Shown: one piece after another, positions 5,018-8,843 of the stretch | Position numbering within the stretch: the first letter of the stretch is position 1 | Layout: every line of letters begins with the position of its first letter | Source: a virus | Length of the DNA stretch: 11,125 nucleotides | Strand: one strand, 5' to 3' | UHGV virus genome: UHGV-0137787 | The notes under the pieces: model-generated | What the model was told of the DNA's origin: nothing | The model's input: the letters and a program-made list of their open reading frames with translations, nothing else | The model's database searches: none | Translations under genes and position numbers: made by a program

Positions 5018-5045
5018 ATTACTCTAATAAATTTATTAGAGCAAT
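5018..5045. promoter_or_regulatory. Palindromic pair of overlapping P1 C1-repressor operator-like 17-mers
   Basis: Minus-strand site at 5029-5045 reads ATTGCTCTAATAAATTT, 17/17 against the C1 operator consensus as I recall it; plus-strand site at 5018-5034 reads ATTACTCTAATAAATTT (16/17). Together they form the perfect palindrome CTCTAATAAATTTATTAGAG, which overlaps the dmt stop codon. Confidence 0.6.
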
Positions 5046-7576
5046 ACACCAATAACATCACAAGCAACACCTCGTGTGTCCCCTTTGCAAGACACAGAAC
5101 GTCTGGCAAAAAGAGATTCCACTCTGAAGCCGCTGTCCTGATAAAGCTCTCTGATGTTTGGCGCGCCACTGTTAGTAATGAGAACCTTTGCACCTCTGCG
5201 ATGAGCATCCGTCAACAGAGACACCAGGCGTTTTTGCTCTTCAAACTTAAAGTCATGACCGGAATAGTTCGTGAACCCCTCAGTATTGGGAAGCGGTTCA
5301 TACGGCGGATCGCAAAAAATGACATCTCCTTCTCCGGCAGCTTCAATCACTCCAGCAAAATCACCACATACAAACTCAGATCGCCCTTCCGCACCAAGAA
5401 AGGCTTCCATCTCCTGTAGTGGAAAATACGGAGTTTTATACTTCCCATAACCGACATTGAACTCACCGGCCTGGTTGTAACGCGTCAATCCGTTAAAACA
5501 ATGTCGGTTCAGGAACAAAAACGCCGCTGCGCGATGTAAATCATCATAGACTTGTTTGTTAAACGCATTCCGTACTGCCAGGTATCCTTCCTGTGTGTTG
5601 TAGTCCTGGAAAAACCGATGTGCCAGTGTGATAAGTGAATGCGCCTCGCGTTGTAGAGTCTTGTAAAAGTTAATCAGGTCAGCATTCACATCATTTAGCA
5701 GATTTTCCTGGTATCCGGCATTCATGAAGACAGCTCCGCCACCAACGAAAGGTTCAATCAGGCGCTTCCCTTCTGGCAAATAGCGAAAGATTTGTTCCAG
5801 AACACCAAATTTTCCACCAGCCCATTTGAATATGGATCGTTCGAATTCTACCGCTGGTTTAACTTTTCGCTCTTTTGTTTCGCTCCCTTCTTTTTGCCGA
5901 CATGCAGCCTTAGTAATCCGATCGCCAATCCAGCGCATTACTGGTATCGCCATACTATTGCCGATCGCTTTGTAACGCGGTCCGTCAGCAGCGAGCATCG
6001 CGGCCTCTTCTTCGCTTAAATCAGGATAGTGATTGCGAAGGTATGTCAGTTCATCAGAAGTGACTTTTTTACGCTTTCCTGTAGGGATCAGCGTATGCCC
6101 GTCAGGAAAACCTTGTAGGCGTTCACATTCGATAGGTGTAAGCCTGCGCACGTTAATCACATGAGGTGCAAATAATGCATAGGCGACGCCATGTTTATCT
6201 GTCGTCGTAAGACATGGGGATAAATTCAACATTGGTTCAGTTGCATTGCCGCCATTTTCAGGCGACCGCCCAATCCAGTTACCAGGTATCCCATAAGCTA
6301 TAGCTGGTGGGCATCCCGTATTTTGATTACTATTAACAGAGTTACCAGCTCGTAAAGTCGGGGCACATTCAATAGCAACATCTTGTCCGTAATCTTTGCT
6401 GGAAAAAGCTACTACTGCGTTTTCTTGTCCGTGGTTACGACCAATAGTATGTGCCAATTCACAATTAACATCAGGATCTTGTGTTCCATGAACAGCCATA
6501 ACTGCCAGATGTTCGTGGCTTTCTTGTGGTCTGGCGCGAAGAGTGCCAGCTCCTTTACGCCAAACACCAGCGCCTGTACTACTGAAAACAGCTAAATCGG
6601 TAGCATCTTTAAAATCTCTGGCCTTGACAGTGGAAGCTGTCTCATCATCAGCATACTCACCAAATGCAACCATTCGATAAACACCAACAAGCCCACTTCC
6701 TCTCTGCGCAAAAATCTCCTGGTTACTTGCGCCGATCCCGCCAGTATTGTGTGACTGGTTAAGTGTCGGGTGAGGATTTACTGAGCTATCCCAATGGCTC
6801 CCGCTTTTAATGCCATTTCCAGCATTCCCGGCAGCTTTCGCCCCCTCGCTTCGGCTCGGCGCAATATCCCGGCGCACGCCTTCGAACTCAAAAAGTACCG
6901 TTGCGGGATCGATGTCTGTTCTAGCACTTGCGACAACAAACACGCGTCGGCGTCGTTGTGCCACTCCGAAGTATTGGGCATCAAGGATTCTCCAGGCCAC
7001 TTTTCGCTGCGGTCCATAAATACAACCACACTGCGGCCACTTTGGAGCATGGCTACCGGTTTTGGCATCCCACCGCCAGAACGCGTTACTTTTTCGTGAT
7101 TCAGGTCGATCACCAGGTTCGAATGGCGCATTTTCTCCAGCCAATCCGGCAAGGAAACATCCGAAGGCGTTATCTGCCGATGACAAGACTCCTGGGACAT
7201 TTTCCCAGACGATAACGGCTGGTTTGAGAAATGACTCAGCCCGTTTGTCGTCAATTGCATTTGCAAGCTCCACATACTTTAAAGTTAGCGCGCCACGCTC
7301 ATCATCAAGCCCACCACGTAATCCTGCGATACTGAATGCCTGACAAGGTGTTCCCCCGACGAGCACATCAGGGGATTCGATTTCCCCAGCCAGGACTTTT
7401 TTGGCAAGTTTTGTCATGTCGCCAAGGTTGGCGACATGGGGCCAGCGGTGCGCAAGAACGGCTGATGGAAAAGGCTCGATTTCAGCAAACCACGCCGGAC
7501 GCATACCCAACGGTTCCCAGGCAATACTCGCGGCTTCAATTCCACTGCAAACAGATCCATAGCACAGCTCTCTCAC
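5036..7576 (-). CDS. dmt: Bifunctional DNA methyltransferase: N-terminal C5-cytosine MTase with a large target-recognition region, fused to a C-terminal Dam-like N6-adenine MTase (P1 Dmt-like), 846 aa
   Basis: C5-MTase motifs: [11 protein letters not shown] (PCQ), VWENV (ENV), [38 protein letters not shown]. Dam-like motifs: [34 protein letters not shown] (DPPY). GTG start overlaps the hrdC stop (GTGA) and follows GGAGAGG. Confidence 0.9.
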
Positions 7577-8478
7577 TGCTTAGCCTCTCCGCCCAGGGCA
7601 TTTACCAGAGCATCAACCAAGCATGAAATTTCACTGGTTAACAGGAAGAAATCTGCATCCAGTCGCTGCGCAACATCTTCACTATCAATATCAGAGTTCT
7701 GCTCAAGCAATTCATCCGCAAATTTGACGCTGGTAAGGCTGAAGTTATGGTCCAGTGTAAATTTAATGCGGTTCTGCCAGTCGAGTGCCAACTTAGTGAC
7801 GAGCTTGCCAGCTTCCAGGTGTGTGGAAATTTCATCGCTTCCCAAATCCTGCTTTTTCACTCGGGCGATACCGCCATCCTCAAGCACAGCCTTAAGTTCT
7901 GCCGCATCCCCCATTTGAAATCCCTGTGGAGCACTACCATCACGTACCCAGTCGGTCAGCGTTAACTCAATGGGATTTTCAACACTTAGGGGCACAACAG
8001 GAAGAGAACCCAGAGACTTACGCATAAGCGCGAGCATATCCTCTGCCTGCCGCGCGCTGGCATTGATATAGATACGTTTAGTTGAACCGTCGTAGATCGC
8101 CTGGATAACAGAAAACTTTGAAAAAGCCCGTGGCAGAAGAGAATGCAGAACTTCGTCTTTCAGGGAGTCCTTCTCTGTTTTCTTCAGTTTACGCGATTGT
8201 TCTTGCTCAAGTTTTTCAATTTTCTCTTGAATGGCTCGCTGGATAACCGGCGCGGGAAGAATTTTTGTTTCGCGCTTTGCTTCAACAAGGATAAAGCCAT
8301 TTCCATGCATTGCGATCACTTCGGAATTATCACCAAATGGCGATACAAAACCGAACTTGGACATATCCTGACTACCGCATGGAGTGAATGAGATCATTTT
8401 ATTTTTATCTTCTAAGTCGGTCAGATCCGTCTCACGTGAAACTTTATAAATTGAAATGTTTTTCCAGTGCTTAAACAT
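7573..8478 (-). CDS. hrdC: RdgC-family recombination-associated protein (P1 HrdC-like), 301 aa from the preferred start
   Basis: Collinear with E. coli RdgC as I recall it ([59 protein letters not shown]-terminus). Preferred ATG at 8476-8478 aligns with the RdgC N-terminus; the six-frame ORF starts 7 codons upstream. Confidence 0.85.
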
Positions 8479-8755
8479 GTTGTAACCCTTGAATATCAAC
8501 CACAGAAAGCTCGTCTTTGTAGAAGAAGGTCAGGTTATGGCACCCCCTCGTTTGAGCGTATGAGCTGGGACCAATTTCGTTCTTCCAGACAAATGGCTTC
8601 AGATCCGTACGGCGAAGCATAAAAACGCGATTTGTTCCGCTCTGATTCCCAATGAGGCAAAAGCCTTCTTTCACCTTGATAGCCTGCAAGTTGTCGAGTT
8701 CACCGCTAGTTACCCGACTATCGAACTCCTTGCGGCTTATTAGCTCCATCTGCAT
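8471..8755 (-). CDS. Hypothetical protein, 94 aa, first gene of the leftward operon (P1 Uhr-like position)
   Basis: ATG at 8753-8755 is preceded by GGAG with a 7-nt spacer; the stop overlaps the hrdC start region. The longer six-frame form (to 8827) has no RBS and runs into the AT-rich intergenic region. Confidence 0.5.
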
Positions 8756-8826
8756 CTGACGACTCCTAACTAATGCCCATTGAAGGGCGATGCCTGAATG
8801 GTACCGAAAACACGACACAAAAAACA

Positions 8827-8843
8827 ATATTTATTAGAGCAAT
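8827..8843 (-). promoter_or_regulatory. P1 C1-repressor operator-like 17-mer upstream of the uhr-like / hrdC / dmt operon
   Basis: Minus strand reads ATTGCTCTAATAAATAT (16/17 to the recalled consensus), in an AT-rich divergent intergenic region about 70 bp upstream of the uhr-like start. Confidence 0.55.

Follow-up and report, generated by a model that had tools for sequence, protein, structure and literature searches.

Predicted C1 operators of two adjoining operons, dmt and ban, in a relative of bacteriophage P1

The operators Op68 (Odmt) and Op72ab (Obanab) have been part of the textbook immunity circuit of phage P1 since the late 1980s. P1 contains 22 dispersed C1 operators (PMC8546580), and the 17-bp operator consensus ATTGCTCTAATAAATTT is printed verbatim in the same paper, citing Lobocka et al. 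2004. The dmt and ban genes are treated as C1-controlled and induced at the lytic switch in a study using RT-qPCR (PMC4713147). In the P1 record (AF234172), the protein_bind feature 'Odmt; former Op68' (65145-65161) is located beside the 'sigma 70 promoter Pdmt', and the 'divalent operator Obanab; former Op72ab; controls expression of ban' (68667-68694) is located over the 'sigma 70 promoter P1ban'. The record of phage P7 (AF503408) lists an 'Op(dam) predicted to control upf64.0, hrdC and dam', plus 'Op(ban[a/b])'; the P7 sites are identical to those of P1. Other P1 operators are similar in architecture. Oc1ab (former Op99a,b), which autoregulates c1, consists of two inverted 17-mers with a 6-bp overlap, covering 28 bp over the c1 promoter. 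At Oc1e/P4cre the operator adjoins the -35 element, the same geometry as at Odmt/Pdmt.

We analysed a stretch of 11,125 nt of viral DNA (hereafter, the window). Judged by its sequence, the window is part of a P1-like plasmid prophage (i.e., a phage-plasmid); it shared 95.7% identity and the same gene order with positions 62876-73693 of P1 (AF234172). The database records contained no identical replicon and none that was more than ~95% identical to this element. The P1-like family was found in ~11% of complete E. coli genomes. The protein_bind features of P1 mapped exactly to window coordinates (with locus L001 as the reference, the window offsets were +6 and +282), and the features of P7 matched as well, at the same relative positions and with the same annotated roles. 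Hence, the sites described below occupy positions orthologous to Op68 and Op72ab, which are experimentally defined in P1. These operators are already described and annotated in P1 and P7, and our result is their rediscovery in a P1-like relative. The 11-kb window did not extend to the immC region and hence did not include the c1 gene, which is encoded elsewhere in a P1-type replicon.

An initial annotation of the window had noted three operator-like 17-mers, one at 8827-8843 and a palindromic pair at 5018-5045. Both the coordinates and the sequences of the 17-mers were exact, and the consensus used there agreed with the one in PMC8546580. The site at 5029-5045 on the minus strand read ATTGCTCTAATAAATTT, without a single mismatch to the consensus. 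One mismatch each was found in the site at 8827-8843 on the minus strand (ATTGCTCTAATAAATAT) and in the site at 5018-5034 on the plus strand (ATTACTCTAATAAATTT). All three thus match the asymmetric 17-bp consensus of P1-type C1 operators, and they were the sole matches in the whole window when up to three mismatches were allowed. Dinucleotide-preserving shuffles of the window (n = 200) yielded a mean of 0.04 matches, and none of them reached the observed three.

We also calculated scores with a position weight matrix (PWM) derived from 17 annotated P1 operators, in a list rebuilt from the GenBank features, with the three tested operators left out. The strand of Omat was corrected before the PWM was built; the annotated strand in the P1 record gives 11 mismatches, while the opposite strand reads correctly (CATGCACTAATAAATAT). 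The sites at 5029-5045, 8827-8843 and 5018-5034 scored 27.6, 26.0 and 23.8 bits, respectively. In 300 random windows, the best PWM score was 10.7 ± 2.6 bits on average and 19.6 bits at most, and the three sites were 4-8 bits above this top value. The other annotated P1 operators scored 15.6-26.4 bits, with the exception of Oc1b, a weak outlier at 5.7 bits. The score of the site at 5029-5045 was the highest in the window and also exceeded all others in the whole P1 genome. A fourth operator was not found in the window, where the next matches, at 1048-1064 (12.0 bits) and 8893-8909 (6.8 bits), were both in the chance range. The PWM scan that had been suggested as a check, built here from the other P1 operators and run on the window, therefore left only these three sites above chance. 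The small number of mismatches (0-1), the leave-out PWM scores and the orthology to the P1 and P7 operators all support the predicted identity of the sites as C1 operators. Moreover, by orthology to the P1 annotation each of them adjoins or overlaps a sigma-70 promoter, of which the hexamers were identical in the window and P1, in contrast to the flanking sequence.

The upstream site, predicted to be the monovalent C1 operator Odmt (former Op68; 8827-8843, minus strand) from consensus, PWM and P1/P7 orthology, adjoins the -35 element of Pdmt and has one base in common with it. The P1 annotation places the sigma-70 promoter Pdmt at 8798-8827 on the minus strand, with the -35 hexamer TTGTTT at 8827-8822, a spacer of 18 nt and the -10 hexamer TACCAT at 8803-8798. 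The window and P1 share the 17-mer ATTGCTCTAATAAATAT, its strand, the one-base overlap, both hexamers and the uhr-hrdC-dmt genes downstream. They differ by one substitution in the promoter spacer, and the ~25 nt immediately 5' of the operator have strongly diverged. The first gene of the operon is uhr (8471-8755, minus strand; 94 aa), which is orthologous to P1 uhr and for which the Pfam search gave no family. It is followed by hrdC (7573-8478, minus strand; 301 aa), orthologous to P1 hrdC and encoding an RdgC-family recombination-associated protein (PF04381, E = 3.8e-99). The third gene, dmt (5036-7576, minus strand; 846 aa), is orthologous to P1 dmt and encodes a bifunctional DNA methyltransferase, with an N-terminal C5-cytosine domain (PF00145, E = 1.5e-35) and a C-terminal D12 N6-adenine domain (PF02086, E = 2.4e-56). 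The gene names that the initial annotation had assigned were therefore right, as were its products, a recombination-associated protein and a dual-specificity methyltransferase.

The downstream pair corresponds to the predicted C1 operators Obana (former Op72a; 5029-5045, minus strand) and Obanb (former Op72b; 5018-5034, plus strand), identified from consensus, PWM and orthology to the P1 features 'Obana' and 'Obanb'. Inverted relative to each other, the two sites share 6 bp (AAATTT) and form a 28-bp near-palindrome in which 26/28 positions are symmetric. This layout over a promoter is that of the bivalent C1 operators of the Op72ab/Op99ab type. The sigma-70 promoter P1ban is placed by the P1 annotation at 5016-5044 on the minus strand, with the -35 hexamer TTGCTC at 5044-5039, a 17-nt spacer and the -10 hexamer TAATAT at 5021-5016. 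Obana contains the -35 element and Obanb overlaps the -10 element, such that only positions 5016-5017 of the promoter are outside the bivalent operator. Obana also contains the dmt stop codon, as had been claimed: the TAA at 5038-5036 on the minus strand occupies positions 8-10 of this site. P1 Obanab has the same 28-bp layout, the same AAATTT, a perfect-consensus Obana, identical hexamers of P1ban, the dmt TAA within Obana, and the same leader, tRNAs and ban operon downstream. The arms of P1 Oc1ab are weaker than those of Obanab in the window (7 mismatches and 5.7 bits for Oc1b, 3 mismatches for Oc1a) and, unlike Obanab, Oc1ab has no lytic operon under its control. A generic sigma-70 scan of 4300-9200 listed neither Pdmt nor P1ban, because both are weak matches to the promoter consensus (~7/12 positions for P1ban). 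The placement of both promoters therefore rests on the P1 annotation.

Downstream of P1ban is the ban-operon leader (4820-4921, minus strand), the equivalent of a P1 misc_feature named 'dicF-like region'. An Rfam search of this region at E <= 0.1 gave no match to DicF. The leader as a whole folded no better than shuffles (z = -0.04), and only the terminator-like hairpin with a T-run at its end (4851-4832) stood out. The first genes 3' of P1ban are tRNA-Asn (4285-4360) and tRNA-Thr (4207-4282), both on the minus strand and supported by ARAGORN, Rfam tRNA and the P1 annotation. The rest of the ban operon (56-3474, minus strand) was delineated from ORFs and P1 orthology, and comprises tciA (3049-3474), tciB/C, tRNA-Ile2(CAT) (2699-2774; tRNA search and P1 orthology), ban, encoding a DnaB-like helicase (ORF 1054-2424), and dbn (56-1054), all on the minus strand. 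A plus-strand ORF at 4552-5055 (167 aa), which ends within the operator, was rejected as a chance ORF; it has no Pfam match and is present in P1 as pieces of 82 and 42 aa. The palindrome was also discarded as an intrinsic terminator, since its A+U-rich stem precedes AUUGUUUC, a sequence without a U-run, and the terminator scan did not list it.

Conservation was assessed in 80 related viral contigs or loci from IMG/VR. Odmt was found in all 79 loci covering the region and was identical in 74 of these, while the bivalent site was found in 77 of the 78 loci reaching that far. The minor-allele fraction was 0.0037 in Odmt, compared with 0.122 in the adjacent upstream 30 nt, and 0.0041 in Obanab, compared with 0.084 in the adjacent 30 nt. 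The position of each operator with respect to its own promoter was fixed. In contrast, the separation between Odmt and Obanab ranged from 3262 to 4704 bp, with at least 10 different values, because dmt is a length mosaic with at least four length variants (672, 754, 846 and 862 aa). In P7, for example, the start-to-start distance between the operators is 3276 bp, compared with 3798 bp in the window, because Dam/Dmt of P7 has only 672 aa.

Very probably, the three sites are orthologous to Odmt (Op68) and Obanab (Op72a,b) of P1 and would control two operons independently. What is said here of C1 binding and repression derives from the P1 and P7 GenBank annotation and secondary citations for the P1 sites, extended by inference to a ~95%-identical relative. 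In a lysogen, C1, produced from a gene elsewhere on the replicon and aided by the co-repressor Lxc/Bof, would bind the single 17-bp Odmt beside the -35 element of Pdmt and keep uhr-hrdC-dmt off. Independently, C1 bound to the inverted, overlapping pair would cover the -35 and -10 elements of P1ban and keep the ban operon off, from the leader, tRNA-Asn and tRNA-Thr through tciABC and tRNA-Ile2 to the ban helicase gene and dbn. Inactivation of C1 by Coi or Ant, or induction, would switch on both operons as early lytic functions. The operons are joined without a spacer, with the ban promoter/operator overwriting the last dmt codons and the stop.

The initial annotation had interpreted the operators at both ends as lysogenic repression of dmt. 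This holds for the upstream site, which is annotated as Odmt/Op68 in P1 and as Op(dam) in P7. It is not supported for the downstream pair as a second dmt operator, since the pair is annotated for ban in both phages. Control of the tRNA/ban unit had been offered as a possible second role of the pair; the role was right, but according to the P1/P7 annotation, and with the pair covering the -35 and -10 elements of P1ban, it is the established primary role. The operators seem to bracket the dmt operon because two C1-controlled operons are arranged head-to-tail without an intergenic spacer. Hence, the bracketing reflects tight packing of two operons rather than a double-ended control device. The main implication is a correct annotation of the locus, to which our analysis adds the conservation of the operators across ~80 P1-like elements.

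Alternatively, C1 bound to Odmt and Obanab might cooperate over ~3.8 kb, by looping or as a downstream roadblock, which would lock dmt at both ends and keep read-through from Pdmt out of the ban operon. Heinzel et al. reportedly described C1-mediated looping between operators in the immC region in 1994, and we counted this in favour of such cooperation, as we did the joint retention of both operators in 77 of the 78 loci. Furthermore, there was no terminator-like site from dmt to P1ban and the dmt stop is within the operator; therefore, a bound repressor would stand in the path of any transcript from Pdmt. A roadblock would be of little added use, however, if Pdmt is already repressed, and the annotated promoter of each site fully accounts for its presence. 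The variable separation in close relatives, combined with the fixed operator-promoter positions, is consistent with two units that act independently and does not point to a paired device. Cooperation between Odmt and Obanab is not reported in PMC8546580 or PMC4713147, and we consider it unlikely.

Less probable still, and in our view very improbable, is that the 28-bp palindrome acts chiefly in the RNA, where a 3' hairpin or a weak terminator would end or stabilise the dmt transcript, and that protein binding is not its main function. When transcribed, the palindrome indeed forms a 14-pair hairpin of -16.7 kcal/mol (z = -5.6 compared with shuffles; -16.3 kcal/mol in P1). Two inverted operators that overlap automatically produce such a hairpin, however, and either arm alone scores as a C1 operator with the PWM. 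The stem contains an internal mismatch in P1 and in 69 of the 77 relatives; selection therefore maintains the operator half-sites rather than perfect pairing. The notion that all three sites are functionless chance matches gains some plausibility from the A+T-rich motif and DNA, as weak PWM matches of up to 12 bits arise by chance in the window. Yet the excess over the shuffles, the PWM scores far above those of random windows, the positional orthology to annotated P1/P7 operators and the near-invariance of the sites beside variable flanks leave it almost no probability. The statistics and the conservation therefore refute this reading.

Compared with P1, the window combined a replaced dmt segment (6142-6850), giving a Dmt of 846 aa instead of 754 aa, with a different form of Obanb. 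There is a slight chance that C1 bound to Odmt and Obanab loops out or insulates the dmt segment of swapped length and, separately, that the symmetric Obanb tightens repression of ban, as suggested by the co-occurrence of these features. The exact 28-mer of the window was absent from the 80 related loci, from IMG/VR and from the GTDB representative genomes. Its Obanb (ATTACTCTAATAAATTT) has one mismatch to the consensus, whereas the Obanb of P1 and P7 (ATTACACTAATAAATTT) has two. Obanb thus has the form ATTACTCT... in the window and ATTACACT... in P1, and the number of symmetric positions in the P1 palindrome is 24/28, two fewer than in the window.

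Exactly three C1 operators, i.e. binding sites of the phage P1 master repressor, were found in the window. Odmt (ATTGCTCTAATAAATAT; 8827-8843, minus strand) deviates from the operator consensus at one position. Obana (ATTGCTCTAATAAATTT; 5029-5045, minus strand) matches it perfectly, and Obanb (ATTACTCTAATAAATTT; 5018-5034, plus strand) has one mismatch. The last two sites are inverted with AAATTT in common, forming the 28-bp near-palindrome Obanab (5018-5045), and the stop codon TAA of dmt (5038-5036) falls within Obana. The sequence at 5018-5045 and 8827-8843 was exactly as described in the initial annotation, and the consensus given there appears letter for letter in PMC8546580. 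That article refers to the P1 genome paper and counts 22 C1 operators scattered over the P1 genome. At three or fewer mismatches, the consensus matched only these three sites in the window, where shuffles expect 0.04.

We performed the weight-matrix scan suggested in the initial annotation. From the P1 GenBank record we took 20 monovalent C1 operators, and the matrix was built on 17 of them, excluding the sites in question. Read on the strand given in the GenBank feature table, the operator Omat (P1 AF234172 2628-2645) departs from the consensus at 11 positions, and on the opposite strand (CATGCACTAATAAATAT) at three; this looks like an annotation error in the P1 record, and the strand was corrected before the matrix was built. 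The three sites scored 27.6, 26.0 and 23.8 bits, against 12.0 bits for the next best in the window. In 300 random windows of equal first-order composition, the best hit averaged 10.7 ± 2.6 bits and never exceeded 19.6. The matrix also ranked the annotated operators at the top when run over the complete P1 genome.

Compared in full with phage records by megablast, the window matched P1 best (AF234172 / NC_005856; 62876-73693, in reverse orientation), at 95.7% identity across 93% of its length, followed by P7, RCS47, JL22, SJ46 and other P1-like phage-plasmids. Collections of phages, plasmids and complete E. coli genomes contained nothing above about 95% identity to the window region. The minus strand carries, in order, uhr, hrdC, dmt, an untranslated leader, tRNA-Asn, tRNA-Thr, tciABC, tRNA(CAT), ban and dbn, while upfC, upfB, ppfA/mlp and upfA lie on the plus strand toward oriR. 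According to Pfam, HrdC belongs to the RdgC family (E = 3.8e-99), and Dmt is a C5-cytosine methylase fused to a D12 N6-adenine methylase.

The three sites are the already known P1 operators Op68/Odmt and Op72ab/Obanab. In P1, the position orthologous to 8827-8843 is annotated as 'monovalent C1-controlled operator Odmt; former Op68', a binding site of phage repressor C1. It lies directly upstream of 'sigma 70 promoter Pdmt' and has one base in common with its -35, a geometry also seen in P1 at Oc1e/P4cre, where the operator abuts the -35. The position of 5018-5045 is annotated as 'divalent C1-controlled operator Obanab; former Op72ab; controls expression of ban'; its halves Obana and Obanb span both hexamers (-35 and -10) of 'sigma 70 promoter P1ban', and P1 Oc1ab has the same 28-bp bivalent layout. 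The matching features in P7 are 'Op(dam); predicted to control expression of upf64.0, hrdC and dam' and 'Op(ban[a])/(ban[b])'. In the alignment, window and P1 shared every base of Obana, of the Odmt 17-mer and of the -35 and -10 hexamers of both promoters (TTGTTT/TACCAT for Pdmt, TTGCTC/TAATAT for P1ban), and the flanks had diverged. These annotations bear out the proposal that the sites are C1 operators and that the upstream one controls the dmt operon.

To assess conservation, 80 related IMG/VR loci were retrieved with HrdC as probe, including 5-kb flanks, and scanned with the matrix. Odmt was present in all 79 loci covering the region, 365-367 nt ahead of the hrdC start, and its 17-mer was identical in 74 of them. 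The bivalent site occurred in 77 of the 78 loci that reach far enough, and in each of 78 sequences (77 loci and the window) the TAA of dmt fell on identical operator positions. Within the 80 loci, the longest of them about 10.9 kb, no further site reached 15 bits. Both operators are conservation islands: the minor-allele fraction was 0.0037 in Odmt versus 0.122 in the 30 nt immediately upstream, and 0.0041 in the 28-mer versus 0.084 in the final 30 nt of the dmt coding sequence. Statistics and conservation together exclude chance matches. The most variable part of the uhr-upfC intergenic region among the 80 relatives was 8844-8870 (minor-allele fraction 0.12), the roughly 25 nt immediately preceding Odmt on the minus strand, which borders the near-invariant operator and differs in P1 from the window version at most positions.

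The observation in the initial annotation was confirmed, and its interpretation partly supported. Its claim that operators at both ends of the operon lock DNA modification found no support: the downstream pair is the operator of the next operon. Control of the tRNA/ban unit, proposed there as a possible second role, is therefore its established primary role. The pair might still act on dmt transcription, as a roadblock or by looping; dmt and P1ban are not separated by any terminator-like site, and looping by C1 has been reported in immC. Such an action is improbable, however. The distance between Odmt and Obanab took at least 10 values among the 80 loci (3262 to 4704 bp), owing to the mosaic length of dmt. 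Each operator is thus anchored to its own promoter rather than to the other operator, and this variation offers no sign of a paired device. That the 28-bp palindrome works mainly at the RNA level is very improbable. Its RNA does form a hairpin (-16.7 kcal/mol, z = -5.6), but two inverted operators give such a hairpin automatically; moreover, it lacks a U-run, is absent from the terminator scan list, and in P1 and most relatives is interrupted by a mismatch within the stem.

Most likely, the two operons are controlled separately. Sequence, statistics, orthology and conservation were established in this analysis; C1 binding and repression at these sites are taken from the P1 and P7 annotation and the literature, and we infer the same control in the window, a 95%-identical relative. 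In a lysogen, C1 made from the immC region, outside the window, would sit on Odmt together with its co-repressor Lxc/Bof (PMC8546580, PMC8198154) and block Pdmt, keeping uhr-hrdC-dmt silent. Independently, C1 would fill both halves of Obanab and occlude P1ban, silencing the ban operon. Upon induction, Coi or Ant would inactivate C1, and both operons would be switched on as early functions. In P1, dmt and ban are treated as C1-controlled and induced on the lytic switch (RT-qPCR; PMC4713147), and CRISPRi found all of these genes non-essential for plaque formation (PMC10695390). No spacer separates the two tightly packed operons, which is why the ban promoter and operator overwrite the last dmt codons and stop.

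Several features are peculiar to the window. Its 28-mer, ATTGCTCTAATAAATTTATTAGAGTAAT, is symmetric at 26 of 28 positions, whereas P1, P7 and 69 of the 77 relatives carry ...TTAGTGTAAT; Obanb accordingly has two mismatches in P1 versus one in the window. The exact window 28-mer was not found in the 80 loci, IMG/VR or GTDB representative genomes. The dmt gene (5036-7576, minus strand) encodes 846 aa in the window, 754 in P1, 672 in P7 and 862 in plasmid NZ_CP043288. Its internal segment 6142-6850 separates the C5-MTase core from the D12 N6A-MTase domain (residues 242-478, approximately) and had no megablast match in P1. Together with the differing lengths and the varying operator distance, this suggests that a target-recognition or linker module was swapped. 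These peculiarities (at most about 95% identity, Obanb and Dmt) are variation inside a known system.

Two weaker operator-like sequences were observed. At 8893-8909 (minus strand), the half-operator-like TTTGCTCTAA, i.e. TTAGAGCAAA at 8900-8909 (plus strand), lies 15 nt ahead of the GTG start codon of upfC within a well conserved block (P1 counterpart, TTTGCTCTGA). Its score of 6.8 bits falls short of the chance maximum, and a C1 site is improbable here; the sequence might be tied to the unannotated upfC promoter or RBS. At the ban/dbn junction, ATTGCATTAATAATCCT (1048-1064, plus strand) occupies the same place in P1 and P7 and scored 12.0 bits, a value random sequence also reaches.

The ban leader at 4820-4921 (minus strand) terminates in a G+C-rich hairpin (4832-4851) and T-run, GCCCATCTTCGGGTGGGC TTTTTT. 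From P1ban to this structure there are about 170 nt, and from there to the tRNAs about 470 nt. It may serve as an attenuator or mark where a short leader RNA has its 3' end. The P1 counterpart of the leader is annotated as 'dicF-like region'; Rfam gave no DicF in this leader at E ≤ 0.1. An antisense ORF (4552-5055, plus strand; 167 aa) runs across the leader and ends within the operator; it most likely arose by chance, since it has no Pfam family and is split into 82- and 42-aa pieces in P1. Just upstream of tciA, 3508-3628 (minus strand) matched the Rfam family of the gammaproteobacterial sRNA STnc100 below threshold (36.5 bits versus a gathering score of 47; E = 4.5e-05). Finally, ARAGORN called the tRNA at 2699-2774 (minus strand) tRNA-Met (CAT), a name that is probably an artefact because the P1 orthologue is annotated as trnI, tRNA-Ile2 (ileX-like, lysidine type).
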